Of a DNA stretch of 64,000 bases, positions 9,310-34,541 are shown piece after piece. The position numbers and the translations under genes were made by a program. Source of the stretch: an uncultured Bacilli bacterium (GTDB lineage: Bacteria > Bacillota_I > Bacilli_A > RF39 > UBA660); contig CAKOYV010000007.1 of the NCBI GenBank assembly GCA_934131005.1, positions 6,689 to 70,688 of the forward strand, in the 5' to 3' direction. The notes under the pieces were generated by a model. That model did no database searches, was not told where the DNA came from, and worked only from the letters and a program-made list of their open reading frames with translations. Each line of letters opens with the position of its first letter. Position 1 is the stretch's first letter.

Positions 9310-9320
9310 AATATCCCTCC

Positions 9321-9911
9321 TTATTTATCTTTTAAAATAGGTATTTCTATTTCCTCTTCTTTTTTCTTTTTAATTCTTTTTTCTTTCTGTTTTTGTATTT
9401 TTTTTCTTTTAGTTTTATTATTATAGGAGAAAGTAAAACTAAATAATACTAAAGTAATAGTTAATAACGTAAACACCTTTGGAGTCATTAATACCTTTTT
9501 CCATATCCCAAATCTAGGTATTACTAAGACCACCTTTCCTAAAACATTCTCTTTTTTTACTTTTGCATCTTTGCTGTTATTAGCATCCCCCTTAGTAGTT
9601 ATTGTCTTACTGTCTATTTGAATTACTCTATGGGTTATAAACTCTTTATTTAAATTATAAGTTATTATATCTTTTTCTTGATAAGTACTATTTAATTTAA
9701 CAATTACTAAATCATTTTTATAAACAGCTGGCTCCATAGAACCACTAGCAATTTCAAAATAAGTATAACCAAAAAGACTTACATAGTCTTTTTTTTGAAT
9801 ATTTAAAGAAATATAACTATAAGTCATAAAAATAATTATTATGCTTATCAAGAATATTAAAATGTAGGTAATAATATTACCTATTTTATCTATTACTTTC
9901 ATCTTTATCAT
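9321..9911 (-). CDS. sipW: SipW-type type I signal peptidase (canonical motifs), paralog 2
   Basis: EIASGSMEPAVYKNDLVIV (SGSMEP catalytic Ser box), FITHRVIQ (His box), N- and C-terminal TM helices, K-rich C-terminal tail. 4-nt overlap with the upstream gene. Confidence 0.7.
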   Translation of the reverse strand: MIKMKVIDKIGNIITYILIFLISIIIIFMTYSYISLNIQKKDYVSLFGYTYFEIASGSMEPAVYKNDLVIVKLNSTYQEKDIITYNLNKEFITHRVIQIDSKTITTKGDANNSKDAKVKKENVLGKVVLVIPRFGIWKKVLMTPKVFTLLTITLVLFSFTFSYNNKTKRKKIQKQKEKRIKKKKEEEIEIPILKDK

Positions 9912-10507: not shown

Positions 10508-11044
10508 CTAGGCCTCTTTTAAATTGCGTTTTACTTCAAGAATGAATTCATATAATTCATATAAGAAGATAAATAAAACTGGTAGTATGATTACAAGCAA
10601 GAATATCCATCTTGATGATAATATTTTTAAAATACTTCCTATTTTATGATAAATAACAGTGTTTTTAGTTGAACCTATTACATATTCACTAGAATATTCA
10701 TAATTTCCTTCAATTTCATAAGTTGTTTCTGTATTAGTAATTTTTCTTTTAGAAATAACTTTTGCTAAATTAACAATAACAGTATTTTTTTCTTTATTTT
10801 GTTCATAGAAAAAGATAGAATCATTAGAGGTAATATCATCATTACCTGTATCTGTTACTACTAATAAATCACCCTTTTTATAGGCAGGTTCCAGTGAATT
10901 ATCCGAAACAATTATAAAGCTTTTATCTCCTATTTCAGTTATTCCATATTTATTATAATTTAATAAGCATATTGTCATTAATATTACAACTAACATGTAA
11001 GGAATTAAGATGATTCCTCCTAGTATCTTTAATATTTTTTTCAT
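10508..11044 (-). CDS. SipW-like type I signal peptidase, paralog 1
   Basis: N-terminal TM, SDNSLEP (Ser box variant), GDLLVV, VIYHK (His), C-terminal TM. Abuts the downstream substrate gene. Confidence 0.55.
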   Translation of the reverse strand: MKKILKILGGIILIPYMLVVILMTICLLNYNKYGITEIGDKSFIIVSDNSLEPAYKKGDLLVVTDTGNDDITSNDSIFFYEQNKEKNTVIVNLAKVISKRKITNTETTYEIEGNYEYSSEYVIGSTKNTVIYHKIGSILKILSSRWIFLLVIILPVLFIFLYELYEFILEVKRNLKEA

Positions 11045-11084
11045 TATTACACCTTCTATTCTACAAATTTAGTATACCATAGTT

Positions 11085-12620: not shown

Positions 12621-12914
12621 TAATATCCAACTCCTGCTTTTCTTTTTCAAGATATGATAAAATTTCTTTTATAGTACTATATGTTTCCAAAATTTCTTCA
12701 TTAGATAGTTCTTTTATTTTTTGATTCATGATATCACCCATCTTCTATTTATTTAATTATAACGAATTTTTTTAAAATTGAAAAGTACTTAATTAAAATA
12801 TTTTGGAATAAATAGTTTAACTAAGTTGTAAAAATAAATTCCACTTTGAAAGAATAAGTTACATCTTTGGTTAAAAAAGTATACATTTAATTGATATTTT
12901 TTAAAATGTAGACA

Positions 12915-12988: not shown

Positions 12989-15900
12989 TTATTTTATAAT
13001 TATATATTTTACTACTTCTCCAACATAAGTGTTATTATCATATAAAAGAAATTTGATTTGGTATGTACCTGTTTTTAATTTATCTTTTAGATTTAATATA
13101 TATTGGAAGCGACTGTTAGGACTATCCATTACTAAATATTCATTTGCTGTGTTAGAGGTTTTTAAAGTATCTGTAACATAATCTTGTAAATTTACTTTAG
13201 TATAACTATATTTATAAATATCTGTATAGGTTCTTCTATATAATGCTACACGAATGCTAGGTTTCTTTAAGTTAGATTCATATTCTAAATTAAAATCTAA
13301 CATTTTACTTTTATTTGAAGTTCTTCCCGTTTTAGCATCTACATAATTATCAGCATCATCCATAGAAACTGATAAACCAAAGTTTTCATTGACAATAGTT
13401 ACTTCTTTGCTGATAGTAGTGGATGGCGCTAAGCCATAATAAATTCCATCTGCCGATCCAAACGTTTCTATTTTTAAGTGATATTCTCCACTAGGGATAT
13501 TACTGTTTGTTGTATCTATAGTAATTTTACTTGATACATTAGCAACCGATTCTGCAATATTAAATCTTACCGTTCCATCTTGTCTAGGAAAATAATTAAC
13601 ACCTTCATAGATGAATTTTGTACCCAACAAGGTTGCTCCGTTGACTAAATTATCTTCACTGTCATATAATGATAGTCTTATTCCTAATTTTTGGTTATAG
13701 AAATTAGTATCAATAATATTTATACTTCCTGTTTTTTGTTGGTCAAAATTAGTTATTACGTTTAATTCTACAGAAGAACCTACGTATATGGTATCATTAC
13801 TTAAAGTAGCTTCTGCATCAATAATAGCATCTTTTCCTTTATATAAGTTGTAAGTCATTTTTTGTTGAGCAATATCTAATACTGGTATTACAGGATTGTC
13901 ATTTTTATCTCTTAATTCCATTAGTAAGTTTTTCTTCAGGACAGTAGCATCTATATTTGCTTCTTTCAAATCTACATTAAAGATAAATTCTTCTTCTGCT
14001 TTTTTATTGGTACTATCATAGTACCTATTATTAGCATCACTATCACTATAAGTATTATTAGCACTTGAACTACCCATTTTAATAAATCTAGAGAACGGAT
14101 AACTGATTTCTCCTTCGGTATAAAGTTCATTTAGGCTATTTTCATAATCTTCTTTACTAATTACATAATAATAATATTCTGGTTTATCACTACTAGCAAA
14201 GTCAATCATTGTAATTTTAGTATTTTTAGGTAAGGCATAATTAGAAACTAGACTTCTGTAATAGCCATCTTTATATGGAGTAAAATTACTTTTTTTAAAT
14301 AGCGAAAAATAAGTACTGAAGGTACTGGTTGAAGTAATATGAACATTACTATTAGCGAACATTTCATATTGATCTCCTACCGTTATAGCTCCTTCATAGT
14401 TATCTCCATCATATAATGCTGATGATAAATTTACTTGAATGTTTACTCTTTGTATTTTACTATTTAAATCATCAATAGGTGTTGATACCATCAAAGAAAT
14501 TGTAACACTACCTAAATCAGCAGAAACATTTAAGTTTTTAGAGTGATATAGATAGAAAATAAAACTTGGTATCGTGGAAGAATTTTCACTTTTATAGGTT
14601 GTAGTTCCTTTTACTTCACTTCCCTTTTGAGTGATAAATTCTGTATCACCTTTGGTAATCCATCCGTTTGTTCCTGTTTTTATGGATAATCCAAAATTTT
14701 TGTTGGCTTCTTCTGTAGTTTTTGCATATCTTGGAATATCTTCGCTTGAAAGTAGTTCTATATTACTAGATAAGTTATCGTAATTAACTCCTAGAACATG
14801 AAATTCTGTATTAGGTTGATAATAGTTAAGTAATTGTAATTCATATGTTCCCAGAGTAGAATATTTAGATGCTGTTAGAGATAGGTCAATTACTTCAACT
14901 GACTCTCCTACTACCCATCTATAGTAGATGGTATCATTAGGTGTTGGCTCTATATAATCTTGTTTTATTGTAGTTCCATTTTCTTCTGGATAATTGGTAT
15001 AAAAGCCATCTTTATAATAGTTATGATTTTCTTTATGTTGCCCCATGACATAGCTTCCAGTTGAGAAATGATAAATTTCTGAACCACTAATCGTATCACC
15101 ATAATTGTATTTATCTGAATATAGGGCTGTTGTTATTTTTCCATTTCTATCTTTAGTAAACATTCCGAAGAATGTCATTCCACTTACTTCTCCATAGGTT
15201 GCTAATGATTCATCATCAGAGATGTTTAGGTTTTTGCCTTCTAGCATGTAAATACGATTTTCACCATTCTTGGCCACTTTTTGGTTTTCTTTGTCAATGG
15301 TTACTTCGACATTTTTTTCTTTTCCATCAATATCAACTAGACTGGAATATTTTTCTAGAAGGTTTGTTCCTTTATTTAAATATAATACTGAGCCATTCTT
15401 TAGTTTTAGATGTTTTATTCTACTAAAGGTAAATAATTCATTTTTATATTTGTTAGTTCTATCAGTTGCTCCTAATAATTCTATGGCACTGTTATTTAAG
15501 GTAACTACATCTGCTCTTTGGATTGAGACGTTTGTTTTGTAATTATCTCCATTACCATAATTATTGATATTTACATAGCTATAACCACCTGATGATGAGG
15601 CATTTCCACTACCCAAGATTGAGCCTGAAATTATATAATTGGTGTGCTTAGAAGCATCTATATTTATGTTAATTCCTTTTGTAACACTAATAAATTTAAA
15701 GTCATAGTCGACACTACCACTGGCATTTGCTTCTCCTCCTCCAAAAACAGTCCCTCCTATTATGATATCATCTTTTTGGTAATCAGTAGCATCTTCAATG
15801 GTATTAATTCCAATATTCACGTAAGTTTCTCCATAAACAACCGAGGTATTCGCTCCACCATAGACGTTTCCTAAGATAGTTGCTCCTGCTATATTAACAT

Positions 15901-18900
15901 AGCTTTTAGCACTATTTTTATTGGTACAAGTTATTGCATCACCTGATGACGTAAAGTCATTTTCACATCCTGTAGCAGCAGCATTTCCTCCTCCAAATAG
16001 GTGTTTTGTGATTACTGTTTTTCCAGATACATCTACTTCATTTCCAGTTACAACGACAGCTGTTTTACCGTTGCCACCGGCATGAACACTTTCTCCTATG
16101 GTACTATCGGTAATTTTGGTTATAGCATTACCTAGAACTGCTCCATCATTGCCACCTCCATAGGTATTTCCTGAGATAGTGGCATTTTTTATTAAAACAC
16201 TTGTATCTCCATCTACTAAAGCAGCATTTCCTCCTCCATAGATATCTCCTTTAACTGTAGTTTTATCTAAGATGTTTAGAGAAGTGTCTTTTAATATACT
16301 AGCCTCATTCCCTCCTCCATAGATAGCTTTTAGAATAGTAGCATTAGTAGTTGTAACGTTAGGTTTATTTGTAACTGCTTTGTTTCCTCCTCCATAGATT
16401 GAACCATAACTTCCACTAGTTAAGTTAATATTACTAGTTTTAGTTAATCCACCTTCATTATTTCCACCATACATATTATTAACATATAAATCATTATAAT
16501 AAATTGTTTTAGTATCTGTTCCATCTGAATTATGACCTACTAATATATAACCTACAATTTGAAAATCAGAATAGTCTACGTAAGAATGAATACAAAATTC
16601 AAAAGAATGAGTTGAATTTGCTGATAAAGCATTTGCACCATACCATTGATTTGTTTGGTTGGAATGAAATACACCATTAATTTCTTCAACATTCGTTCCT
16701 GACCAGTTAGAGTCAAAAACAGCATCAGTGGTTATTAAGTAAAAATCCCAATTAGTATAACTTGTTGTTGAAGCATTGTGAAGAGTAACATTAATTTTTT
16801 CACTAGATTTTATTCCTAATGGATTGGTTTGGTTTACAGTACTAGTATCGAAAGAAACATCTGCATATAAGTTACTATTACTTTCTAATTCTTGAGGTGT
16901 ATTTTTTATATTAGTAGTAGTAACATTTCCTAATACATTAGAACCTCCAAAAATATTTTTTATATATCCTTTATTTAAATTTAAATGTGTAGTAATAACA
17001 CCAGCACTTTTTCCTCCTCCAAATAAATAATCTATTTTTCCATGAATTATATTTAGATTTGAGGTAGTTGTTTCTGCTTCTAGTCCTCCTCCATAAATGG
17101 AAGTAATAATACCACCTGTTACTGTTACATTAGAGTTTACGGTTGTTCCTCCCAAATTATTTCCTCCATAGACACTGTCTGCTATGCCGTCATTTATGTT
17201 GATATAACTAGTATGAACAGTTCCTTTTTGGTCAGATCCCCCAAAAACATTGGTAGCTCTGTTATTTAAATTAACATTAGTTGCAGAAACGATATCCGTC
17301 TCTCGACCGCCTCCATATACATCGGTAACATCTCCTCCATCTATTGATACATTACTTGTATTAGTTGTTCCTCCAATGTTATTTCCACCGTAAACATTTG
17401 TTACTTTACCTGATTTTACATTAACATTACTAGTTGTAACATCTCCACTTGTATTAGACGCACCAAATAAGTTAGTAACTGTCCCTCCATTTAATAAAAC
17501 ATGACTGATATCAACTTTTGCTTGATTACCTCCGCCATATCCATTAGTGGTAGTTCCTCCATAAAAATTAATGTTTGGTTCGCTTACTTCTGTTTGATTT
17601 CCTCCTGCATAGGCATTTGTTATTTTTCCTCCATGAACATTTACAGTTACACTTCCATTTGGAGTTCCCCTTTGATCGGATCCGCCATAAACATTGTCAA
17701 TTATTCCACCTTTAATATCAACAGCGACATTACCTAGAACATAAGGTGTATAAGTACCATTACCTTCTCCTCCTCCAAAAACGCTATTTATCGTTCCAGA
17801 TAATACTTCAATATTCGTATTTTTAGAAGAAATGGTTGTTGAATTACTTGCTCCGTTAACTGTACCAAAAGCACTTCCTCCATAGATAGCATTTTCTATT
17901 TTTAAGTTTTCATTACTCTCATTTTCTATCCCTGTTATAATTTTTACTTCTCCTGTTACAAAAGTACCTGGACTTGATGATGATTGATATCCACCTTCTC
18001 CTCCTCCATAACAAGAAGTTCTGACTGTACCTGATAAGAGATTTAGAGCAACATCTCCATAAACTGTTCCTTTAGTTCTTGAACCTCCATAGATAGATCC
18101 TTCTACCAATCCTCCATTTAGAGTTATATTTACTTTAAATTCTTTACTAGAGGTACTTGCTCCATTATTATTTCCCCCACCATAAACATTTCCTTTTATA
18201 GTACCTCCTAATAGAGAAATATTGCTATAATTTGAATTACTGCTACTATTAATTCCAGTAGCCCCGTAGTTTCCTCCTCCATAGACATTTCCTAAGATAG
18301 TCGCGTTAGAATCTACAATAATTGTTGAATTATCATTAGTCCCAATTGAATCAGTACCTGATTTACCATTACCAATCCCAAAGACTGATCCTGCTTCAGC
18401 ATTCCACAGTTTAGTTCCATTATTTACATTATCTTCCTTACCAATAACAGCATTTCCTCCTATATAGATAAATGAACTACCTGATAATTTACCATCTCCA
18501 TCAGAACCTATGTAACCATTAGAGCCTCCAAAAATTTGATAATTAACAACTCCACCAGTTACTGCTATGATTCTATTTCCATAAGTGGTACTAAGTCCCG
18601 CACCTCCTACTATTGCATCAACTTCTCCTCCTGTTATATACATATATATATCATTTAGACTATCTCGATTATCACTAGAAGTTGGTCCCCCTATTAGATT
18701 ATAAATCCATCCCCCTTCAACTTTAACTTTTTTTGGAGCATAATGATCTCCATATCCTCTACCACCAACATAGATACCTGTTGCATAATCTGATTTTCCT
18801 GATCCAAATTTCCCACTTTTTACAACAAAATCAAAGATTAGACTAGTAGTTGTATTAGTGGCATAATAATTACCTCCACCCCAGCTTGATGAAGCACAAA

Positions 18901-20644
18901 AATTAATATCGAGGTTATTATTGTTTTTTGTTACTTTATCATAATCATTCCCATATATAGCCTTACTATTTAAGTATCTTGAAGAACTATTACTATACGA
19001 GGCATTTGCTAAGGATATAGAATTATAAAAGCCACTTTCTATAATAACTTTATATTTAGTAGGATTACTAACACTACCTGTAGAAGATCCTCCTCCCCAG
19101 TAATTGCCACTATTATTATTATCTCCTGCTATAATAGCATTAAAAGTTTTATAACTACCACTTTGTACAATACCTCTACCTATTCTTACATTATGATAAT
19201 TACCATAAAAGTATTTTGAATTACTAGTACCACTAGAAGGACTACTACTATTATTACCAGTATTAGAATTTATCTTGATATTTTCTATGTTTACATCACT
19301 ATAAGCATGATAAGCGTTGCTAGAAACATCCCATGTAACATTATCTCGATAAGAAGTTCCATTATATATACTAGTTAAGGTATAAGGTTTGTTTTGACTA
19401 CTAGAAGGAACACTACTAGTATTAGATTGCATAACAATAATATTGGTATCTCTTGTTGCTAGATAATAATACTCATTATCACTAGAAGATACGATAACAT
19501 TACCATCGTTATCATAATATTGCATTAATTCATAATATTCACACCCATTATAATTATTACATGTTCCACTTTCTTGATATTCTCCTGTATCACTATAATA
19601 GCCACTAATAGATGAATATCTATCAATTGTAACTTTCTTGTAATAACCACTTACTATTATTCCATCATCAAACCCTGGTAAATTTTCATAGCCAGTAATT
19701 TGTGGAGTATAGACTTGCATCTGATTATTCCAACCACCAGTTGATAATTTATAATAAGTAACACTTGAATCATAATTATTTTCTGTAACTTTAGAATAAT
19801 AAGTACATCCATTCCTGTTACGACATTCGTCTCCAGATATATCATTTCCATATCTATCATAAGCATTATCTGGATAATACGTTTTACTCCACCAGCTACC
19901 ACTACTAGTAACAGTTTTTTGAGTATAAAGCCCTGTTATATCTTCATAGACAGCAACTTTCCCCCCTATTTTAACCATTCCTTTATCTTTTAATTTGTTA
20001 AAAGTACTTGACCATTGATTGGAAGTAGAAGTAATTTTTCCTACATCAGCAGTTACCCAATTAGCATGAAAAGTTATTTTTATATTACTTGTATCTGTTA
20101 CTGGTATTTTAGCATGTCTTTCATAATAATTATCATTATATTGAATAGTTACTCCTTTATAGTCTGTAACCCATCCATTGAACCCTTTATCGATTGGTCT
20201 ATCTGTAAAAGGATTTTCTATTAAGGTTATATCTATATATCCATCATTTATTGGATATACTTTATAATACTTATAAGTATTTTGTCTTTCAGTTAAGCTA
20301 ACATAACCTACTAAAGTATTATCATTAATATCAGTTCCATCATAAGTAATTTCAACATTCACTAGATTTTTTTCGTTATAAATATTTTGATTTTCTCCAC
20401 TTGGTAAGGAGCCCGTTGAACTTGCAGTATAATTTAAACTTTCATAATAATTATAATCACTTTCGGTTTCATCTACTATAACCATATTATCGAATACACC
20501 ACTGTTATTTTCTACTTCTGATAGTGTTGTTGTAGTTGTATATTCGCTATAAGTTAATGCATAAGTAGTGATAGAAGCAATTACTATAAGTGCTAATATT
20601 ACTGTTAGTAAAATTTTGCTTGTTTTATTATTTTTTCTTTTCAT
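12989..20644 (-). CDS. Giant (2551 aa) secreted surface protein with central parallel beta-helix-like (x)YGGGN repeats and a TasA-type signal peptide
   Basis: N-terminus K-rich, then hydrophobic core ILLTVILALIVIASITTYALTY. Dozens of ~20-22 aa repeats (NVYGGGN / SIYGGS / LFGGGN ...T.T.SNV.V) across residues ~640-1330. Paired Cys motifs (CRNRNGCTYY, CNNYNGCEYY). Ser/Thr/Asn-rich overall. Confidence 0.7.
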   Translation of the reverse strand: MKRKNNKTSKILLTVILALIVIASITTYALTYSEYTTTTTLSEVENNSGVFDNMVIVDETESDYNYYESLNYTASSTGSLPSGENQNIYNEKNLVNVEITYDGTDINDNTLVGYVSLTERQNTYKYYKVYPINDGYIDITLIENPFTDRPIDKGFNGWVTDYKGVTIQYNDNYYERHAKIPVTDTSNIKITFHANWVTADVGKITSTSNQWSSTFNKLKDKGMVKIGGKVAVYEDITGLYTQKTVTSSGSWWSKTYYPDNAYDRYGNDISGDECRNRNGCTYYSKVTENNYDSSVTYYKLSTGGWNNQMQVYTPQITGYENLPGFDDGIIVSGYYKKVTIDRYSSISGYYSDTGEYQESGTCNNYNGCEYYELMQYYDNDGNVIVSSSDNEYYYLATRDTNIIVMQSNTSSVPSSSQNKPYTLTSIYNGTSYRDNVTWDVSSNAYHAYSDVNIENIKINSNTGNNSSSPSSGTSNSKYFYGNYHNVRIGRGIVQSGSYKTFNAIIAGDNNNSGNYWGGGSSTGSVSNPTKYKVIIESGFYNSISLANASYSNSSSRYLNSKAIYGNDYDKVTKNNNNLDINFCASSSWGGGNYYATNTTTSLIFDFVVKSGKFGSGKSDYATGIYVGGRGYGDHYAPKKVKVEGGWIYNLIGGPTSSDNRDSLNDIYMYITGGEVDAIVGGAGLSTTYGNRIIAVTGGVVNYQIFGGSNGYIGSDGDGKLSGSSFIYIGGNAVIGKEDNVNNGTKLWNAEAGSVFGIGNGKSGTDSIGTNDNSTIIVDSNATILGNVYGGGNYGATGINSSSNSNYSNISLLGGTIKGNVYGGGNNNGASTSSKEFKVNITLNGGLVEGSIYGGSRTKGTVYGDVALNLLSGTVRTSCYGGGEGGYQSSSSPGTFVTGEVKIITGIENESNENLKIENAIYGGSAFGTVNGASNSTTISSKNTNIEVLSGTINSVFGGGEGNGTYTPYVLGNVAVDIKGGIIDNVYGGSDQRGTPNGSVTVNVHGGKITNAYAGGNQTEVSEPNINFYGGTTTNGYGGGNQAKVDISHVLLNGGTVTNLFGASNTSGDVTTSNVNVKSGKVTNVYGGNNIGGTTNTSNVSIDGGDVTDVYGGGRETDIVSATNVNLNNRATNVFGGSDQKGTVHTSYININDGIADSVYGGNNLGGTTVNSNVTVTGGIITSIYGGGLEAETTTSNLNIIHGKIDYLFGGGKSAGVITTHLNLNKGYIKNIFGGSNVLGNVTTTNIKNTPQELESNSNLYADVSFDTSTVNQTNPLGIKSSEKINVTLHNASTTSYTNWDFYLITTDAVFDSNWSGTNVEEINGVFHSNQTNQWYGANALSANSTHSFEFCIHSYVDYSDFQIVGYILVGHNSDGTDTKTIYYNDLYVNNMYGGNNEGGLTKTSNINLTSGSYGSIYGGGNKAVTNKPNVTTTNATILKAIYGGGNEASILKDTSLNILDKTTVKGDIYGGGNAALVDGDTSVLIKNATISGNTYGGGNDGAVLGNAITKITDSTIGESVHAGGNGKTAVVVTGNEVDVSGKTVITKHLFGGGNAAATGCENDFTSSGDAITCTNKNSAKSYVNIAGATILGNVYGGANTSVVYGETYVNIGINTIEDATDYQKDDIIIGGTVFGGGEANASGSVDYDFKFISVTKGININIDASKHTNYIISGSILGSGNASSSGGYSYVNINNYGNGDNYKTNVSIQRADVVTLNNSAIELLGATDRTNKYKNELFTFSRIKHLKLKNGSVLYLNKGTNLLEKYSSLVDIDGKEKNVEVTIDKENQKVAKNGENRIYMLEGKNLNISDDESLATYGEVSGMTFFGMFTKDRNGKITTALYSDKYNYGDTISGSEIYHFSTGSYVMGQHKENHNYYKDGFYTNYPEENGTTIKQDYIEPTPNDTIYYRWVVGESVEVIDLSLTASKYSTLGTYELQLLNYYQPNTEFHVLGVNYDNLSSNIELLSSEDIPRYAKTTEEANKNFGLSIKTGTNGWITKGDTEFITQKGSEVKGTTTYKSENSSTIPSFIFYLYHSKNLNVSADLGSVTISLMVSTPIDDLNSKIQRVNIQVNLSSALYDGDNYEGAITVGDQYEMFANSNVHITSTSTFSTYFSLFKKSNFTPYKDGYYRSLVSNYALPKNTKITMIDFASSDKPEYYYYVISKEDYENSLNELYTEGEISYPFSRFIKMGSSSANNTYSDSDANNRYYDSTNKKAEEEFIFNVDLKEANIDATVLKKNLLMELRDKNDNPVIPVLDIAQQKMTYNLYKGKDAIIDAEATLSNDTIYVGSSVELNVITNFDQQKTGSINIIDTNFYNQKLGIRLSLYDSEDNLVNGATLLGTKFIYEGVNYFPRQDGTVRFNIAESVANVSSKITIDTTNSNIPSGEYHLKIETFGSADGIYYGLAPSTTISKEVTIVNENFGLSVSMDDADNYVDAKTGRTSNKSKMLDFNLEYESNLKKPSIRVALYRRTYTDIYKYSYTKVNLQDYVTDTLKTSNTANEYLVMDSPNSRFQYILNLKDKLKTGTYQIKFLLYDNNTYVGEVVKYIIIK

Positions 20645-21525: not shown

Positions 21526-22638
21526 TTATCCAGCAGCAGCAGCATCTTTATCATTCAAACTAAATTGAAGTTTCAAAGATATATCTCCACCTGAAGCATT
21601 ATTTTCACAGTCAACATCTTGTCCTTCAACCCAGAAATAAATTCTCACTTTTGTAATTGTATTAGGTGTTAAATCAAATAATTTTTCATATCCAGCAGCA
21701 CCGGCCCATCCAGCTTTTGTTTTAATTCCTGGAACAACGCTTGCAAATTGTGTACCATTATCTGTTGCATTAGCTTTGCTTAATAGAACATCATTAGCGG
21801 TTGTAACTTCTGCTATTGTACCAAAGTATGGAACTTGAGATTTTGAAGTTGCAGCTGTATAAGCATTACCACTATTTTCACTATTATAGTATGAATATGC
21901 ATTAGAAATACCAGTCGTTGTATGAGCGTCATAGTTTGGCTCCCATACATAAATATTAGAAACATCTGTTGTTGTCAATGCTTGAATTTGGGCTAATTCC
22001 GAACCATTTTTAGTACTTCCTTCATTGATAAAAGCAACACGTGAAGCATTTTGAGTTCCTAAATCTGAACCACCTGATTTAAATGTTACATCAGATGATT
22101 TTGTTAAATAAAGTGGTTTAGAATCTGCACCGTTATCATCTAGTCGAACAAATAAGTCAAACATAACAAAATGTCCATTTGTCCCAACATTTTCAGTATC
22201 TTTTACTGTATTATCTTTTACTGTGCTAACATCTTTTGTTGTAAGAATGTATTGTCCTTTATTAGCGGTTGTATTACTTGTTTCTACTGTTCCCAACCAC
22301 ATACTTAAGTAACCATTATTCAAAGATTTTGCAGCGGTTGATACTGGTTTTAAAGTCTTTGGCACTTGGTTAGTAGCAGCTGTATATGTATTAATCGCTC
22401 CTTCTATATCAGCATTAGTAATAATAGATTTCCAATTAGTACCATCAACTGAAACCTGAATACCACCACTAGCAGCAACATTAACATCAATATCCTCAAC
22501 TGTTACTGTTCTATTAGAAGTAAACCAAGCATAGGTTGATGTACTAAGAATTATGCCAGTTATAATAAGTAGTAAAAGTAATAAAAATAATCTTTTTTTA
22601 CTTCTTTTTGTATCTTCTTTTAATTCTTTCTTTTCCAT
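21526..22638 (-). CDS. TasA/camelysin (peptidase M73)-like secreted protein, paralog A (370 aa)
   Basis: Signal peptide LFLLLLLLIITGIILSTSTYAWFTSNRTV (SipW-cognate TYAWF motif). C-terminal VRIYFWVEGQDVDCENNASGGDISLKLQF motif shared with the neighbouring paralogs. Confidence 0.6.
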   Translation of the reverse strand: MEKKELKEDTKRSKKRLFLLLLLLIITGIILSTSTYAWFTSNRTVTVEDIDVNVAASGGIQVSVDGTNWKSIITNADIEGAINTYTAATNQVPKTLKPVSTAAKSLNNGYLSMWLGTVETSNTTANKGQYILTTKDVSTVKDNTVKDTENVGTNGHFVMFDLFVRLDDNGADSKPLYLTKSSDVTFKSGGSDLGTQNASRVAFINEGSTKNGSELAQIQALTTTDVSNIYVWEPNYDAHTTTGISNAYSYYNSENSGNAYTAATSKSQVPYFGTIAEVTTANDVLLSKANATDNGTQFASVVPGIKTKAGWAGAAGYEKLFDLTPNTITKVRIYFWVEGQDVDCENNASGGDISLKLQFSLNDKDAAAAG

Positions 22639-23148: not shown

Positions 23149-24195
23149 TTAAGAAGGATTGGTACTAAATTCTAAAGCAAATGACAAATCACCTACTGAA
23201 GCATTATTTTCACAGTCAACATCTTGACCTTCTAACCAGAAGTATACTCTAACTTTAGTAATACCACTTGCAAGACTAATTAGTTTTTGATAAGCTGTAC
23301 TACCTGTTGGTGTCATAATATTGGGCATTACAGTAGAAAACTTGGTAGGATGTCTGGAAGCAAGAGAATCTTTTAAAGTTATGTTTTCGCTTTCACTAAT
23401 TTCAGATTGAACCCCATCATAAGAGATATATTGAGCGTTTGTCTCACTAGTAATAATATTATAAACATCTTTTGCATTACTAATTCCTGTTTTAGTATGA
23501 GTATTATAATTTGGTTCCCATATATAAACGTTATCTTGATTAATAGTAGAAAGTGATTGAATAGTCGACGTGCTACTACCTGCACTAGTATTTCCTTCAA
23601 CAACAAATGCAACTCGAACAGCATTCTCCGTTCCAGTACTAGTAGTCCCATTATAGGTAACGTTAGATTTACCTGTTAAGTATAGGTCTTTTGCCTCAGT
23701 AGTTTTTAAAAAGATATCAAATACTACAAATTTGCCGTTAGATGTTTCACCACTACTTTCTGTTTCAGTACTTTTAGTTGATATTAAAATGTAATCTCCT
23801 CCACCATTTGATCTTACTTCTCCTAAATACATATTCATATGTCCTTGATTATCTAATGCTCCAATTGTAGATACTGGTTCTATCATTAGTGGAAGTTGGT
23901 TTACGCTCGATGGATAAGTTGCTCTAGCAGCTACCAATTCATCTTGATCAATTCCTGCTTTCCAATTAATTCCATCAACAGATATTTCTAAGCTTCCTTT
24001 ACTTTGAACTTTAACATTTAGAGTTTCTACCTTAACCATTCGGTTAGTAGTAAACCAAGCATAAGTAGATGTTGCTAACATTACCCCTGTAATTAAGAGT
24101 AAAAACAATAAATAAACTACTCTCTTCTTATCAATAACTTCATCTGGTTCTTCTTCATAATAATATATTTTTCTTGTTCTAATCTTTCTTCCCAT
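23149..24195 (-). CDS. TasA/camelysin-like secreted protein, paralog B (348 aa)
   Basis: VVYLLFLLLITGVMLATSTYAWFTTNRMV signal. C-terminal VRVYFWLEGQDVDCENNASVGDLSFALEF. Clearly paralogous to 21526..22638. Confidence 0.6.
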   Translation of the reverse strand: MGRKIRTRKIYYYEEEPDEVIDKKRVVYLLFLLLITGVMLATSTYAWFTTNRMVKVETLNVKVQSKGSLEISVDGINWKAGIDQDELVAARATYPSSVNQLPLMIEPVSTIGALDNQGHMNMYLGEVRSNGGGDYILISTKSTETESSGETSNGKFVVFDIFLKTTEAKDLYLTGKSNVTYNGTTSTGTENAVRVAFVVEGNTSAGSSTSTIQSLSTINQDNVYIWEPNYNTHTKTGISNAKDVYNIITSETNAQYISYDGVQSEISESENITLKDSLASRHPTKFSTVMPNIMTPTGSTAYQKLISLASGITKVRVYFWLEGQDVDCENNASVGDLSFALEFSTNPS

Positions 24196-28750: not shown

Positions 28751-29479
28751 CTACTCTGAAATAAGCTCTACATATATATTAGCAAAATTACCTGCCTGAA
28801 GAATAGTAATATCACCCTCACGAGCAAGCTCTAAAATTGACATAAACGTAACAACAATATAACTTCTACTATATATAGAAAACAAATCTCTAAACTCAGC
28901 CTTTTTATTTATACGAAGATAATTCCTAATATCACTCTTACGCTTCTTAACACTATATTCCTTATTAGTAATCTTAGTGTTAAGTGGCTTCTCCTTATCC
29001 TTTCTTTCTAAGAACTTATAAAAAGCACTAACCAAATCATCAATCGAAATATCCGTATCATTAACAAGCTTCCTATCAGCAATATCCTCTATCTTAGACG
29101 GTGCTTTCGTATAAATCTTCTTACGATCTAACTCCATTTTCTTAAAATTATGCGAAACACTCTTATATTTTTCATATTCAACAAGCCTATTAATTAAATT
29201 ATCACGACTAACTTCTTCTTCCTCATCGCAAGATACCAAAACCTGTTTCTGAGGCAATAAAGAATTAGACTTAATCAACATAAGCTCACTAGCCATAACC
29301 AAATACTCAGATGCAACAACTATATCCATAGCCTCCATCTGATGTATATAATCCAAATATTGCTTAGTAATAACATCAATTGAAATATCATAAATATCAA
29401 TATTAGCTTCCTTAATTAAATGTAACAATAAATCTAGTGGCCCCTCAAATTCATCAATCTTTATCTTATATTGCATCAA
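28751..29479 (-). CDS. scpA: Segregation and condensation protein A (kleisin)
   Basis: 242 aa. KIDEFEGPLDLLLHLI start is typical ScpA. Conserved order scpA-scpB. Confidence 0.8.
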   Translation of the reverse strand: MMQYKIKIDEFEGPLDLLLHLIKEANIDIYDISIDVITKQYLDYIHQMEAMDIVVASEYLVMASELMLIKSNSLLPQKQVLVSCDEEEEVSRDNLINRLVEYEKYKSVSHNFKKMELDRKKIYTKAPSKIEDIADRKLVNDTDISIDDLVSAFYKFLERKDKEKPLNTKITNKEYSVKKRKSDIRNYLRINKKAEFRDLFSIYSRSYIVVTFMSILELAREGDITILQAGNFANIYVELISE

Positions 29480-29678
29480 AAAACACTCCCATACTTATAA
29501 AAGTATACCATAATAAAAAAAGAAAAAAAAGTCTTTTTTTACCTAAAAATCAATTCTAAATATAACTTTAAAAATAAAATCTAAATCACACCCAAATTTA
29601 TCTTTTTTAATATATCAATCGATAAATCATATCCCAACAAAAAAAGATAAACAGCCGACCTAACCATCTATCTTCCAA

Positions 29679-30992
29679 TTATTTTATTAAAGTTATTCTA
29701 GCATAACCATTCCCCTTTTTAGCATACCCACTAATTGCATCATCAGATACATTAGTGGTAGATATAGTTTTAGTATCCTCCGCAGCAGATTCAAGGCAAT
29801 TATAGCAATACATAACTTTATTAGTTAAAAGTGAATTCCCTATATAACCAGAACCACCGCCTCCGCCACCTGCTAAATCAGAAGAACCGCCTCCATAAAA
29901 ACCAATTCCACCTTGCCCGCCACCATCACCGCCACTAGTTTTCCCGCCTACTCCAAACATACCATTTTTAATAGAAACAGTGCTACTTCGAGAATCTATA
30001 GCCGTAGATTGGCCACCACTTACTTGGCTTCCACCCATAGCAGTAGGAATAATAGATTGCCAATCAACTATATCATTTTTTAAAAAACCTTGAGCCCCAG
30101 AATTTCCAATATAACCACCACCTGAACCACCAATTCCATCATACCATTCAGAACCACCACCACCACCTGATACAATTAATATTTTTGATAAATCATTTTC
30201 AAAATTATTCAAAGTATCTGATTCAGTAGTTATATATGTGGCACCTCCGCCACCCGGTGCTGTACCCCCTCCATGATCATTTTCTGAAAATCTTCCAACA
30301 TTTACAAAAATATTCCCATATTCCAATGATACATTACCATTGGAATAACCACCTACTCCACCTTCTATTTTATTATTATCCCAACCTCCACCTTGTGCAC
30401 CCCAAGTTTCTAATTTATAATCACCACTTACTGGTACAACAAAATCTTGCTCTCTACCTACATAATCAAAATCGATTGTTTCAATACTAACATTTTCATT
30501 ACTAGAAACTTCTTCACTACCTATAGTTGATGATTGTTCACTAGTCGCATAAATATATCCTGAAAAACTTTTATTATCAAACTGACCATTAGATATTTCT
30601 GAATCTATCCATAAATAAACTTGATAGCTTTTAGGATTACTAGTTAAAGGAACTACTGCTAATAAACTATCTCCTTTAGTTGTAATAGTTCCATTATATT
30701 CAATTTTATCTTCCGTTATTAATTTATATTTCAAAGCTTTAATACTCTCTATAAGTGCTGTTATACTATCATTAACATGCAAATAAATATTCACATAACT
30801 ATAAATCTTACAATCCTCACTTTGAGATAAAGTAATCGTACTCTTAGCCCCTTCTAAATAATTAGTTGTACTACTAAGATTACTAGCATTTATCTCTTCT
30901 CCCTGATAATTTATTCCATTACACTTAGCACTTCCAGCAACAGAAGTATTTTTTTTCATCTCTAAATATGCATAAGTTCCACTAGTTACCAA
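29679..30992 (-). CDS. Glycine-rich secreted paralog 1 (body ORF); its signal-peptide leader is out of frame because of a poly-G(9) tract
   Basis: Body starts ...VTSGTYAYLEMKKNTSV, i.e. the TasA-type SGTYAYL cleavage-region motif without its n- and h-regions. The upstream ATG (31095-31093, minus) encodes MKNNYKLKVNSGGG and stops. The 9-G tract (plus-strand C's 31055-31063) sits between them. Confidence 0.6.
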   Translation of the reverse strand: MVTSGTYAYLEMKKNTSVAGSAKCNGINYQGEEINASNLSSTTNYLEGAKSTITLSQSEDCKIYSYVNIYLHVNDSITALIESIKALKYKLITEDKIEYNGTITTKGDSLLAVVPLTSNPKSYQVYLWIDSEISNGQFDNKSFSGYIYATSEQSSTIGSEEVSSNENVSIETIDFDYVGREQDFVVPVSGDYKLETWGAQGGGWDNNKIEGGVGGYSNGNVSLEYGNIFVNVGRFSENDHGGGTAPGGGGATYITTESDTLNNFENDLSKILIVSGGGGGSEWYDGIGGSGGGYIGNSGAQGFLKNDIVDWQSIIPTAMGGSQVSGGQSTAIDSRSSTVSIKNGMFGVGGKTSGGDGGGQGGIGFYGGGSSDLAGGGGGGSGYIGNSLLTNKVMYCYNCLESAAEDTKTISTTNVSDDAISGYAKKGNGYARITLIK

Positions 30993-31054
30993 AACTGCAT
31001 AGCAAAATATTCCTGCAATTATTAAGCCAATTCTCTTTAATTTAAGACTTTTGA

Positions 31055-31063
31055 CCCCCCCCC
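31055..31063 (-). repeat. Poly-G(9) (plus-strand poly-C) homopolymer in the leader of paralog 1: candidate slipped-strand phase-variation switch
   Basis: With 8 (or 11) G the upstream ATG joins the body in frame: MKNNYKLKVNSGGVKSLKLKRIGLIIAGIFCYAVLVTSGTYAYLE.. (n-region, h-region, SipW-type motif). With 9 G translation terminates after 17 codons. Confidence 0.65.
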
Positions 31064-31187
31064 GAATTAACTTTTAGTTTATAATTATTTTTCATAAATA
31101 TACCTCTTATCTTTATCATATCTATTTATCATTTTACCAAAAAATAATAAAAAAATAAACAAGAAATATAAAATTTCCCATTTATTG

Positions 31188-32555
31188 TTATTTTATTAAT
31201 GTGATTCTAGCATAACCATTACCCTTTTTAGCATACCCACTAATTGCATCATCAGATACATTAGTCGTAGATATTGTTTTAGTACTAACATCACTTGATT
31301 CTACGCACTCATAACAATACATAGATTTATTGGTTAAAAGTGAATTGCCTATGTAACCCGAACCTCCACCAGCACAATTAGTCCATGATGTTTCACCACT
31401 TCCCATAGAACCACCATAATATCCACCTCCACCACCAGATTTACCATCAGTTGGCGAATCAGAAACACCATCTTCTCCTTGACCAAATTTATAGCCAAGT
31501 TGCTGAGTACCACCTATACCGGCTTTTCCTGGGTAAGATTGGCTACCTATTGCACCGCTATTTCCTTGGAATCCACCACCGGCACCTCCTAAACAATAAC
31601 CACCACCAGGAACATGAGCAGATGTCCCGCCTCCTCCACCGGCAACGATTAAGATTTTATTTTTTGAGTTTTCTAGAGATGACAAAGTTCCAGAAATAAT
31701 TGAAATATCAGTGGCACCTCCACCATTAGCATAATAAATTCCAGAACCTCCACCATTATAACCCCTTGGAATAACAGTAGAATAATCCATATTTGTATCA
31801 ATAAAAGTATCTCCTCCTCCTCCAATATTCAAATAAAGTTTTTCAAATTCATTTAAATTGACATAGCCAATTGAATAAGCACCATAGCCTCCATCTCTAA
31901 TGTAATAAGTATTACCACCCGTTTCAGTATTTTTATTAACACCGCTTCCACCTTGTGCTCCCCAAGTTTCTAGCTTATACTTCCCACTTACAGGTGTCAT
32001 AAACTCTTGCTCTCTACCTACATAATCAAAATCAATCGTTTCAATACTAACATTTTCATTATTGGAAATTTCCCCACCATCTATAGTAGATGATTGTTCA
32101 CTAGTCGCATAAATATATCCTGAAAAACTTTTATTATCAAACTGACCATTAGAAATTTCTGAATCTATCCATAAATAAACTTGATAGCTTTTAGGATTAC
32201 TAGTTAAAGGAACTACTGCTAATAAACTATCTCCTTTAGTTGTAATAGTTCCATTATATTCAATTTTATCTTCCGTTATTAATTTATATTTCAAAGCTTT
32301 AATACTCTCCATAGGAGCTGTTATATTATCATTAGTATGCAAATAAATATTCACATAACTATAAATCTTACAATCCTCACTTTGAGATAAAGTAATCGTG
32401 CTCTTAGCCCCTTCTAAATAATTAGTCGTACTACTAAGATTACTAGCATTTATCTCTTGCCCCTGATAATTTATTCCATTACATTTAGCACTTCCAGCAA
32501 CTGAAGTATTCTTTTTCATCTCTAAATATGCATAAGTACCACTAGTTACTAACAA
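31188..32555 (-). CDS. Glycine-rich secreted paralog 2 (body ORF); leader out of frame via poly-G(9) at 32615-32623
   Basis: N-terminal 185 aa and C-terminal ~45 aa nearly identical to paralogs 1 and 3, with a different Gly-rich core. Upstream ATG 32655-32653 encodes MRNDYKLKVNSGGG then stops. With 8 G it reads ...GVKSLKLKRIGLIIVGIFCYALLVTSGTYAYLE. Confidence 0.6.
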   Translation of the reverse strand: MLVTSGTYAYLEMKKNTSVAGSAKCNGINYQGQEINASNLSSTTNYLEGAKSTITLSQSEDCKIYSYVNIYLHTNDNITAPMESIKALKYKLITEDKIEYNGTITTKGDSLLAVVPLTSNPKSYQVYLWIDSEISNGQFDNKSFSGYIYATSEQSSTIDGGEISNNENVSIETIDFDYVGREQEFMTPVSGKYKLETWGAQGGSGVNKNTETGGNTYYIRDGGYGAYSIGYVNLNEFEKLYLNIGGGGDTFIDTNMDYSTVIPRGYNGGGSGIYYANGGGATDISIISGTLSSLENSKNKILIVAGGGGGTSAHVPGGGYCLGGAGGGFQGNSGAIGSQSYPGKAGIGGTQQLGYKFGQGEDGVSDSPTDGKSGGGGGYYGGSMGSGETSWTNCAGGGSGYIGNSLLTNKSMYCYECVESSDVSTKTISTTNVSDDAISGYAKKGNGYARITLIK

Positions 32556-32614
32556 TGCATAACAAAATATTCCTACAATTATTAAGCCAATTCTCTTTAA
32601 TTTAAGACTCTTGA

Positions 32615-32623
32615 CCCCCCCCC
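32615..32623 (-). repeat. Poly-G(9) tract in the leader of paralog 2
   Basis: Same TTGACCCCCCCCCGAATTAACTTTTAGTTTATAAT context on the plus strand as at 31051 and 34168. Confidence 0.65.
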
Positions 32624-32741
32624 GAATTAACTTTTAGTTTATAATCATTTCTCATAAATATACCTCTTATCTTTATCATATCTACCTACTATTTTACCAA
32701 AAAGCAAGAAAAAAATAAACAAGAAATATCAATTTTCCTAT

Positions 32742-34112
32742 TTATTTTATCAATGTAATTCTAGCATAACCGTTTCCCTCTTTAGCATATTCCCTAATTG
32801 CATCTTCAGATACATTAGTGGTAGATATAGTTTTAGTACTCTCATCAGCAGATTCTTCACAATTATAACAATACATAGACTTATTAGTTAAAAGTGAATT
32901 TCCTATATATGAAGAACCACCTGCACCAGAGCCTCCCCAGGAAGCACCGCCACCATAAAGTCCGCCTCCGCCTCCTCCAGAAACATTAGCAGAACCATTA
33001 ATAGTTGTGCCTCCACCTACACCAAAAATTCCATTTAACCATTTAGTTGCTAAATTACCATCTAAATTCCCTCCACCTGTACCACCAGACGTTTGAGTTC
33101 CACCAGTAGGATTTACATTAGCAAAATTTCTAACAGTTGAACTACCAACTATTCCACCACCTGAACCAGCATTGTCTTGAACATAACTCCACCAAGTGCA
33201 AGTACCACCTCCACCTGATGATAATATTAATATTTCATTTTTTAATAAATTATTCACAGTCTGTTTTGCAATTGAAATATGTGTTGAACCACCACCTGAA
33301 GAATAAGTTATATTATTTGCATCATCTCCACTACTACGAATAGCACCTCCATTTGGATAACCATAGGCAATTCCTTTATCTTTACCATTATTTAAATTCT
33401 GCCCTTTTCCTCCAACATAAACATACTCAGTCATATTTTTAGTTAAAGAAATAGTTCCAACAGCATATGCTCCATAACCGCCATGATATTCACTAGAATC
33501 ACTAGCACCTTGTGCACCCCAAGTTTCTAATTTATAATCATCGTTTACTGGTACAATAAATTCTTGCTCTCTACCTACATAATCAAAATCAATCGTTTCA
33601 ATACTAACATTTTCATTATTAGAAATTTCTTCACTACCTATAGTAGATGATTGTTCACTAGTTGCATAAATGTATCCTGAAAAACTTTTATTATCATACT
33701 GACCACTAGAAATTTCTGAATCTATCCATAAATAAACTTGATAGCTTTTAGGATTACTAGTTAAAGGAACTACTGCTAATAAACTATCTCCTTTAGTTGT
33801 AATAGTTCCATTATATTCAATTTTATCTTCCGTTATTAATTTATATTTCAAAGCTTTAATACTCTCTATAAGTGCTGTTATACTATCATTAACATGCAAA
33901 TAAATATTCACATAACTATAAATCTTACAATCCTCACTTTGAGATAAAGTAATCGTACTCTTAGCCCCTTCTAAATAATTAGTTGTACTACTAAGATTAC
34001 TAGCATTTATCTCTTCTCCCTGATAATTTATTCCGTTACATTTAGCACTTCCTGCAACTGAAGTATTCTTTTTCATCTCTAAATATGCATATGTTCCACT
34101 AGTTACTAACAA
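32742..34112 (-). CDS. Glycine-rich secreted paralog 3 (body ORF); leader out of frame via poly-G(9) at 34172-34180
   Basis: Upstream ATG 34212-34210 encodes MKNNYKLKVNSGGG then stops. With 8 G it reads ...GVKNIKLRRVNLIIVGIFCYALLVTSGTYAYLE. Conserved N- and C-terminal domains with a distinct Gly-rich middle. Confidence 0.6.
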   Translation of the reverse strand: MLVTSGTYAYLEMKKNTSVAGSAKCNGINYQGEEINASNLSSTTNYLEGAKSTITLSQSEDCKIYSYVNIYLHVNDSITALIESIKALKYKLITEDKIEYNGTITTKGDSLLAVVPLTSNPKSYQVYLWIDSEISSGQYDNKSFSGYIYATSEQSSTIGSEEISNNENVSIETIDFDYVGREQEFIVPVNDDYKLETWGAQGASDSSEYHGGYGAYAVGTISLTKNMTEYVYVGGKGQNLNNGKDKGIAYGYPNGGAIRSSGDDANNITYSSGGGSTHISIAKQTVNNLLKNEILILSSGGGGTCTWWSYVQDNAGSGGGIVGSSTVRNFANVNPTGGTQTSGGTGGGNLDGNLATKWLNGIFGVGGGTTINGSANVSGGGGGGLYGGGASWGGSGAGGSSYIGNSLLTNKSMYCYNCEESADESTKTISTTNVSEDAIREYAKEGNGYARITLIK

Positions 34113-34171
34113 TGCATAACAAAATATTCCTACAATTATTAAATTTACTCTCCTTAATTTAATATTTTTGA

Positions 34172-34180
34172 CCCCCCCCC
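34172..34180 (-). repeat. Poly-G(9) tract in the leader of paralog 3
   Basis: Nine consecutive C on the plus strand, counted directly in the sequence. Confidence 0.65.
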
Positions 34181-34464
34181 GAATTAACTTTTAGTTTATA
34201 ATTGTTTTTCATATCACACCTCTTACCTTCACGTTAGCTTAACATAATAATAACATATTTTGCCAAAAAGAAAAAGAGAAAGATAACTCCAATTAAAGCA
34301 TAGCAAAAGAGAGCTGAATTTTAGCTCTCTCACAAAGTTCGTTTATCATTAGTTTTTGGCCTCACCAACCCCACTTAACAAAGGGCCAAAAATAAGACCC
34401 CACTTCATAGATAGAAGTAGAGTCTAAATAACTAAATACATATTGTATTCAGATTAATCTCAAA

Positions 34465-34541
34465 TGGTGTCCCCGAGGTGATTCGAACACCTGACCGATC
34501 GCTTAGAAGGCGATTGCTCTATCCAGCTGAGCTACGGAGAC
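34465..34541 (-). tRNA. tRNA-Arg (anticodon TCT)
   Basis: Minus-strand sequence GTCTCCGTAGCTCAGCTGGATAGAGCAATCGCCTTCTAAGCGATCGGTCAGGTGTTCGAATCACCTCGGGGACACCA. 7-bp acceptor stem, D-loop AGCTGGATA, anticodon loop CTTCTAA, T-loop TTCGAAT, encoded CCA. Confidence 0.85.

Follow-up and report, generated by a model that had tools for sequence, protein, structure and literature searches.

The window, by which we mean the whole stretch of DNA analysed here, comprises 64,000 nucleotides from an uncultured member of the Bacilli (assembly GCA_934131005.1, contig CAKOYV010000007.1, positions 6,689 to 70,688 of the forward strand). Its minus strand carries, between tRNA-Arg(TCT) and scpA, an array of three tandem paralogous genes for glycine-rich proteins, each with a run of exactly nine G in its leader (n = 3; C on the plus strand), as established by a script and by reading of positions 29400–34500 (Table 1). 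The three units share one layout: the sequence AAGAGGT, a gap of 5–7 nt, an ATG, ten further codons, the dinucleotide TC and the nine G, with each tract beginning 32 nt past its ATG. Up to the poly-G the leader has 13 codons, reading MKNNY or MRNDY followed by KLKVNSGG. With nine G the leader open reading frame (ORF) is 17 codons long (MKNNYKLKVNSGGGQKS, MRNDYKLKVNSGGGQES and MKNNYKLKVNSGGGQKY, each followed by a stop), and with ten G a stop follows 19 codons in all three paralogs. Eight or eleven G place the leader in frame with the body, the 8G fusions being 471, 488 and 489 amino acids (aa) long. The N-terminus of the fusion comprises a basic n-region, a hydrophobic stretch of some 18 residues and the motif TSGTYAYLE. 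The arrangement is that of a simple-sequence-repeat contingency locus, with a mutable repeat in the 5′ coding region that sets the frame.

Much of this anatomy had been proposed in an earlier note made from the letters of the window. The three 9-G tracts, the stop after 17 codons and the restoration of the frame by 8 or 11 G were reproduced by our script, the fusion does contain the elements of a full signal peptide, and all three copies are OFF in the assembly, each leader ending in a stop. The note gave all three genes the same leader; that of the middle paralog differs, being MRNDYKLKVNSGGG, of the MRNDY type. It also described a TATTT-rich ribosome-binding region, in place of which we find the clear AAGAGGT. 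The rest of the anatomy stands.

Table 1. Coordinates of the array, its switch elements and a candidate processing enzyme in the window
Feature	Position	Strand	Details
Paralog 3, first in array	32742..34212	-	ATG 34212, stop 32742; OFF at G9; 8G fusion 489 aa; PF12810 E=1.5e-34
Poly-G of paralog 3	34172..34180	-	9 G
Shine-Dalgarno of paralog 3 leader ATG	34219..34224	-	AAGAGG
N-domain of paralog 3	33597..34076	-	~aa 46-205 of fused protein; predicted 8-strand beta-sandwich
ALK/LTK-type glycine-rich domain of paralog 3	32742..33539	-	Pfam
Paralog 2	31188..32655	-	ATG 32655 (MRNDYKLKVNSGGG), stop 31188; OFF at G9; 8G fusion 488 aa; PF12810 E=2.9e-33
Poly-G of paralog 2	32615..32623	-	9 G
Shine-Dalgarno of paralog 2 leader ATG	32663..32668	-	AAGAGG
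Paralog 1, last in array	29679..31095	-	ATG 31095, stop 29679; OFF at G9; 8G fusion 471 aa; PF12810 E=4.9e-25
Poly-G of paralog 1	31055..31063	-	9 G
Shine-Dalgarno of paralog 1 leader ATG	31103..31108	-	AAGAGG
~210-bp 5′ cassette	30965..31174	-	-79 to +131 relative to paralog 1 ATG: upstream region, Shine-Dalgarno, leader, poly-G, hydrophobic signal segment
SipW-type (archaeal/ER-type) signal peptidase I	9321..9911	-	TIGR02228 73.7 bits (cut-off 51.85); Peptidase_S24 match

Gene finders call the body ORFs from an internal TTG (34112, 32555 and 30992), where there is no Shine-Dalgarno sequence. Distant homologues of the N-domain that have no G tract possess ordinary, continuous N-termini, for example MRKENLKLSIIIFLAVVISLSATYAYLEL and MSKLKVNSKNQNINLVTKFRRLLTFLFFIITYSIFITGSTYAY, and these match the frame-corrected leaders residue for residue over the basic stretch, the hydrophobic segment and (G)TYAY(L/F). 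Because of these aligned homologues and the placement of the Shine-Dalgarno sequences, the leader ATG can be taken as the true start and the TTG-called ORFs as truncations. Judging from the reading frames, an exported product would not be possible from a G9 allele. Most of the close relatives found with a frame-corrected protein query are likewise annotated from the internal start (MLVTSGTYAYLE...), and some are intact, namely P0074 (MRNDYKLKVNSGGVKSLKL...), P0025 and P0024; a homologue search with the N-terminal 203 aa added only 8 new proteins. This amounts to a warning about annotation: about 94% of the public contigs counted for the three genes are called from the spurious internal TTG and have no signal peptide, and these calls make the family appear cytoplasmic and hide its leaders.

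We compared the DNA of 18 syntenic or related loci with the window, every tract length being the consensus for its sample. The syntenic loci are from independent metagenomes and belong to the same species, in the context GerM – array – scpA/scpB, and array states are written here from the GerM side (window tracts 34172, 32615 and 31055). The window, L003 and L006 read 9-9-9. Other arrays read 8-10-9 (L016), 8-9-9 (L017), 9-8-9 (L018) and 8-9-8 (L019), and two were partly readable, as ?-10-9 (L004) and 9-10-? (L007). Taken site by site, L016, L017 and L019 have 8 G at paralog 3, where L003, L005, L006, L007 and L018 have 9 G; at paralog 2 the tract is of 8 G in L018 and of 10 G in L004, L007 and L016, all others having 9 G; and at paralog 1 it is of 8 G in L019. 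At this last site L020 keeps 9 G and restores the frame in another manner, by loss of TCAA immediately 3′ of the G9 tract (L020 6033–6045; protein P0153, ...NSGGGSLKLK...). Such a 4-nt deletion is an alternative, less reversible path to the ON state. These varied array states mean that the genes switch independently of each other, with two ON together in L019.

The DNA around the tracts changes much less than the tracts do. In a BLAST comparison of the 5.2-kb region, L018 differs from the window over 5201 nt by no mismatch and a single gap, which is the middle tract (9 vs 8). For L016 there are 2 mismatches and 2 gaps (the tracts of 8 and 10), for L017 3 mismatches and 1 gap, and for L003, L005 and L006 27–38 mismatches and no gaps. 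In 9 of 9 comparisons there are as many gaps as there are tracts whose length departs from that in the window. Since gaps are confined to the tracts, the tract must mutate far faster than the surrounding DNA, so that repeat length varies between near-identical strains faster than point substitutions accumulate, as is characteristic of contingency loci. Among 23 ‘bystander’ tracts, those outside the gene used for the look-up, 18 have G9, three G10, one G8 and one G11. Further ON alleles head related genes: an 11-G allele precedes a laminin-G-type paralog in L010, and one Flg_new-type gene has an 8-G ON and a 9-G OFF allele in two samples (L008, L009).

Protein records agree with the DNA. The 90%-identity clusters of the window's three ORFs hold members of the predicted ON lengths that start MKNNYKLKVNSGGVK..., with 471 aa (P0149, P0155), 488 aa (P0161, P0166) and 489 aa (P0171, on three contigs, and P0177). 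On reading, P0171 appears identical to the predicted paralog 3 8G fusion and P0166 to the predicted paralog 2 fusion, the latter following from the absence of mismatches between L018 and the window. Among the members listed there are about 9 ON contigs against about 129 OFF contigs (some 6% ON), and in each cluster the window's OFF-type ORF is the most frequent sequence (16–25 contigs). The bodies are uninterrupted in about 130 OFF contigs. All three paralogs thus occur naturally in ON and in OFF form with the downstream ORF intact, and the proposal of the earlier note, that a homopolymer in the 5′ coding region gates this secreted family as a contingency locus, is well supported by 8, 9, 10 and 11 G in near-identical DNA and by the 8G fusions in public data.

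A chance origin of the tracts is difficult to reconcile with their setting. The window has 27.8% guanine plus cytosine (GC) and no G or C run of at least 7 besides the three tracts, where about 0.01 runs of at least 9 would be expected; the three are paralogous, and hence are not independent events for this estimate. Conservation in distant relatives is the stronger argument. In 335 kb of lineage DNA, 49 of 49 G/C runs of at least 7 sit in the leader cassette. The motif AAAGTTAATTC(G)n, with n = 6–11, occurs at the same leader codon in at least three clades whose N-domains share about 50% amino-acid identity. Two of these clades lie beyond that of the window, a metagenome-assembled genome (MAG) on CAMBIR01 records (‘uncultured Firmicutes bacterium’) and contigs of ERZ1643249 with 25% GC; their tracts are of 6, 8, 9 or 10 G, some of them ON and some OFF. 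The array in L013 has four genes and reads 10-9-8-9. The scan of genome contigs contributed one distant MAG only, and a DNA-pattern scan of metagenomes gave 10 loci, of which 3 belong to the family, the others being chance 18-mer matches in organisms of 33–52% GC.

Codon usage does not account for the tract either. Glycine makes up 15–17% of body residues, GGG only 18 of 221 glycine codons (8%), and the longest G run in the bodies is 5 in spite of GGGGGG peptides. Orthologues and paralogs thus keep the tract in the face of compositional and codon bias, which is a further mark of a contingency locus, and these comparisons argue that it is maintained by selection and is not accidental. Two other homopolymers came to our attention. 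An unrelated organism of about 39% GC has another gene with a G tract (L027 2285–2292 and L030 2405–2414, minus strand), of which the G8 form stops after 18 codons and the G10 form opens a 366-aa ORF (MCKELTNVNKMGGGRNSNLELYRIV...); this is probably another poly-G contingency gene. Within the window, a run of nine A (minus strand) lies at 3524–3532, some 40 nt into ORF 2463–3572 from its 5′ end.

The C-terminal half of all three proteins, from about residue 223 to the end, belongs to PF12810, the ALK/LTK glycine-rich domain, with scores of 89–120 bits against a gathering cut-off of 24.5. The Pfam search of the three fusions found nothing beyond PF12810, an NCBIfam search gave no match, and a sequence search of the PDB returned nothing useful. 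For the full-length protein the AlphaFold model was of too low quality to be used, with a predicted local distance difference test (pLDDT) score of 54, and we relied on a model of the N-domain built from a more diverse alignment. Its core has a pLDDT of 68–94 and is predicted to form an eight-strand beta-sandwich, for which fold comparison found generic beta-sandwich matches only. The earlier designation of the proteins as TasA-type is not upheld, given that Pfam recognises the ALK/LTK glycine-rich domain alone and that the N-domain is a generic beta-sandwich. Identity with TasA/camelysin (Peptidase_M73) was considered and rejected, there being no Pfam or NCBIfam profile match and no fold match of the mature N-domain.

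A profile search of a library of 1.8 billion proteins was swamped by glycine-rich-domain matches, as the profile contained that domain. Among these are giant proteins of 4000–7000 aa from public metagenomes (P0310–P0316 and others), with up to 11 stretches that match the profile, mostly its ALK/LTK glycine-rich part. To judge by these proteins, the glycine-rich domain forms a far larger and more repetitive family in bacteria than the three genes would suggest.

The paralogs are mosaics. Identity is 90–100% over their first ~780 nt (leader and N-domain), only 25–55% over the central ~650 nt of the glycine-rich domain and 75–97% over the last ~150 nt. Substitutions between strains all fall in N-domain codons 64–196, at the same codons in all three paralogs; strains do not differ at all in the hypervariable glycine-rich cores or in the DNA between the genes. 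Strain differences at the same codons in every paralog point to patches of gene conversion and not to point mutation. We therefore dropped a count of the dN/dS type (18 synonymous vs 15–18 non-synonymous codon changes) as a test of selection. Cluster members include a chimera of the paralog 2 N-terminus with the paralog 1 glycine-rich domain (P0149), and P0153 has the C-terminal tail of paralog 2. Taken with the same-codon differences, these chimeric members indicate that gene conversion between the paralogs is active.

Recombination may also have carried the switch further afield. The cassette of about 210 bp that heads each paralog is found before genes with unrelated C-terminal domains (Flg_new, laminin-G and DUF285). 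A DUF285 gene in L009 has 84% identity to the window's cassette from −79 to +131, and homology then ends. This gene is one of two tandem DUF285 paralogs in that related genome (L009 4334–7887). The first has the poly-G cassette in a different phase, TT-G9-C, and would need 10 or 7 G to be ON; the second has a related leader that lacks a G tract (MKKLNKLKFNFSNNKNKK...). The two would constitute a natural pair of a switchable and a fixed gene. L007, which holds the array, and L009 come from one sample, and if they share one genome then that genome would contain at least six genes of this type. We lean, by a modest margin, towards a picture in which a portable cassette is set by recombination before unrelated surface-protein genes. 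Each genome would then have at least six independent switches, giving a combinatorial, host-specific coat in which OFF (G9) is the default and ON variants take over in particular hosts. If this is true, a commensal Firmicute resembling spore-formers would possess a phasome in the style of opa or of Campylobacter, recognised from metagenomes alone.

For the array itself we are confident, if short of certain, that the three genes are tandem contingency genes, switching independently and gated by slippage in poly-G. In the scheme that we propose, every gene has its own ribosome-binding site and a leader running into the poly-G; a promoter of its own is assumed for each. Slipped-strand mispairing during replication would add or remove a single G. 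With 8 or 11 G the leader would join the rest of the signal sequence and give an exported protein of 471–489 aa, with a beta-sandwich N-domain and a hypervariable glycine-rich domain. With 9 or 10 G translation would end at 17–19 codons and no exported protein would be made, the window's three genes being in the modal OFF state (G9). Hosts would differ in the dominant ON/OFF combination of the three genes, and recombination of the near-identical 5′ halves would reshuffle the paralogs. We infer that switching is frequent and reversible within one population and that the product is exported and surface-exposed; the benefit would presumably be that cells escape, or adapt to, host antibody, phage or niche.

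The predominance of G9 may have a mutational basis. In a study of Campylobacter jejuni (PMC3401435), poly-G tracts of G8 mainly gain and those of G10 and G11 mainly lose a base, with a modal length of 9. The stationary distribution that we computed from the rates given there is 6, 15, 49, 28 and 3% for G7 to G11, to be compared with per-sample consensus calls that overstate the modal length class. If slippage behaves here as in C. jejuni, G9 would be the mutational resting state, with OFF as the default and ON as a standing minority able to sweep in a host.

Several points weigh against our interpretation. The tract lengths are consensus values for whole samples, and frequent reversible switching within a clone goes beyond what consensus data can speak to. 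Since the 5′ 780 nt of the paralogs are 90–100% identical, assemblies from short reads could blur the assignment of lengths to paralogs. OFF is the consensus in about 91–94% of observations, which would fit either a mostly silent family or residual expression of G9 alleles by another route. A scan of the AT-rich region for promoters and terminators gave 26 matches against 26.7 expected from shuffled sequence and is uninformative. Export, cleavage and surface location are themselves predictions from the sequence.

Could G9 nonetheless be functional? Programmed +1 ribosomal frameshifting, or slippage of RNA polymerase to give 8G and 11G transcripts, would turn tract length into a means of tuning the level of expression and not an on/off switch. 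G9 is by far the commonest state, homopolymer runs of 9 are able to cause transcriptional slippage (mostly runs of A or T), and low-level slippage products are possible as a minor leak. However, genes that depend on recoding hold the slippery site constant, whereas here the length varies from 8 to 11 and in-frame alleles of the same genes exist (8 G, 11 G, and 9 G with the 4-nt deletion), so that neither a fixed slippery length nor an invariable need for a frameshift is found. Furthermore, a −1 shift runs into a stop, the tract has neither a stop nor a rare codon that could promote a +1 shift, Rfam finds no known RNA element in the region (two tRNAs only), and distant relatives manage without any tract. 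We regard recoding as unlikely to be the explanation.

Two further explanations would deny the genes any switch at all. It might be that the true tracts have 8 or 11 G, that the genes are constitutively ON and that G9 is a systematic miscall. Homopolymers are error-prone on several platforms, a single length is read at all three tracts, and the near-identical flanks of the paralogs might make polishing converge on one value. Yet independent assemblies from several projects and assemblers mostly read 9 too, and the window's OFF-type ORFs are the commonest in their clusters, on those 16–25 contigs each. Lengths of 8, 10 and 11 are read elsewhere, including differing paralogs on one contig (8-10-9), which a systematic bias would not produce. 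The earlier note had itself named two outcomes that would count against its proposal, an assembly error hiding a tract of 8 or 11 and a lack of length heterogeneity across populations; the former is very unlikely in view of these assemblies, and across samples we find lengths of 8–11. The other explanation supposes that the family is decaying, inactivated by frameshifts at a fragile homopolymer and heading for loss. All three copies in the window and most public alleles are indeed out of frame, but the bodies of 437–456 codons are free of stops in the ~130 OFF contigs and each frame disruption seen falls within the tract. Moreover, each of the three genes has recurrent ON alleles, one allele regains the frame through a 4-nt deletion, and the tract has been preserved in three divergent clades and not eroded. 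The intact bodies and the conserved tract speak against pseudogene decay, which is very unlikely.

As a system of independently switching contingency genes, the array follows a logic closest to that of the Neisseria opa family and of the poly-G phasome of AT-rich Campylobacter. The opa genes encode a multi-copy family of surface proteins; every copy carries a repeat where its leader peptide is encoded and is switched independently by slipped-strand mispairing, and the paralogs have conserved ends and hypervariable segments that are reshuffled by recombination (PMC3960869). Our array shows parallels in its copy number (at least three per genome), in the independent states of the genes and in the mosaic paralogs with their patches of conversion. 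The opa repeat, unlike the poly-G described here, is a CTCTT pentamer, and the products are outer-membrane beta-barrels of a Gram-negative pathogen, whereas ours are ALK/LTK glycine-rich proteins; there is no homology, and only the logic is shared. According to the same C. jejuni study, that organism is AT-rich (~30% GC), nearly all of its long G/C runs are phase-variable, and single-nucleotide changes set the frame and hence the ON or OFF state (PMC3401435). G9 is modal here too, lengths span 8–11, and all G/C runs of at least 7 lie within these genes. The C. jejuni tracts, however, occur at various positions in unrelated genes, mostly for glycan-modifying enzymes, in contrast to the one conserved leader cassette reused before exported proteins in a spore-former-like member of the Bacilli.

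There are Gram-positive precedents for a 5′ repeat that decides whether a surface protein is produced. Gardnerella nanH3 has a poly-C tract beside the signal-peptide coding region, and annotation wrongly presents its OFF alleles as proteins that have no signal peptide (bioRxiv 10.1101/2020.09.16.300947), an artefact paralleled by the ORFs called here from the internal TTG. Streptococcus pyogenes scl2 has pentanucleotide repeats directly after the start codon (PMC3022705). These are single genes, for a sialidase and a collagen-like adhesin respectively, unlike the present tandem family with its shared, portable cassette. In the Vlp, Vsa and Vpma families of Mycoplasma, clustered paralogs share promoter and signal peptide at a conserved 5′ end and vary in the remainder, which yields combinatorial surface variation (PMC11868660). 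They resemble our array in belonging to a low-GC lineage derived from Firmicutes and in the clustering of paralogs with a conserved 5′ end. Their switching, by promoter poly-A tracts or site-specific inversion, differs from a coding poly-G, and their products are lipoproteins.

A comparison with the TasA/camelysin–SipW system of Bacillus biofilm fibres bears on how the leader might be processed. The earlier note had seen a SipW-type cleavage motif in the fusion. In its favour, the sequence G-T-Y-A-Y-L resembles the G-T-W/F-A-A/F-F of SipW substrates, and the window encodes a SipW-type signal peptidase (Table 1) with a second, divergent copy at 10508–11044. The profile evidence does not go along with it: TIGR04088, the SipW-cognate signal peptide, gave no match to the paralog leaders even at E values up to 10, where TasA as a control scored 41 bits; window ORF 21526–22638 was a borderline match at 18.8 bits (cut-off 19). 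The array differs from TasA/camelysin in this respect, in the want of any profile match to the proteins and in its generic beta-sandwich N-domain; the peptidase gene, moreover, is 20 kb away and shares no operon with it. Processing of the leaders by the peptidase at 9321–9911 is a reasonable hypothesis.

Other ORFs with related motifs, and neighbours of the peptidase genes, were noted in passing. Two paralogous ORFs of ~350–370 aa, 21526–22638 and 23149–24195 (both minus strand), have N-termini containing ...STSTYAWFTSN/TTN... and no Pfam domain. Both peptidase copies lie in a cluster at 8725–12650 (minus strand) together with two small Pfam-poor ORFs. Beside it, at 12989–20644 (minus strand), is a 2551-aa ORF with no Pfam domain and an N-terminal ...ASITTYALTY after a hydrophobic segment; the paralog leaders resemble the N-termini of these ORFs. 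The cluster and the 2551-aa ORF look like a dedicated secretion or processing module for a giant surface protein. Next to the array, tRNA-Arg(TCT) (34465–34541, minus strand) is followed by a terminator-like hairpin (34395–34425) immediately 5′ of the first paralog. Sporulation-type genes are present in the window and the syntenic loci, namely SpoIIIAH, GerM/Germane and a GerE-type regulator, and at least the records named for Hadza and Nepal are human gut metagenomes. For the transketolase encoded in the window, the closest named relatives (‘MAG: Bacilli bacterium’) are 74–75% identical.

Phase variation based on repeats has been worked out almost entirely in pathogens such as Neisseria, Haemophilus, Campylobacter, Helicobacter and the mycoplasmas, and work on gut commensals has mostly dealt with invertible promoters. 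The mechanism considered here is a textbook one; what is new is the protein family, the host lineage and the shared 5′ cassette, and a search of the literature library turned up no account of the family, nor of PF12810 proteins that are phase-variable. Variable exported proteins would provide a first biological context for the bacterial homologues of the ALK/LTK glycine-rich domain. For an uncultured low-GC member of the gut Bacilli, the array represents a repeat-driven, multi-gene switch whose ON/OFF combinations vary between human hosts. It offers a handle on the surface variation of such commensals, for which immunoglobulin A, phage and niche are the candidate pressures.

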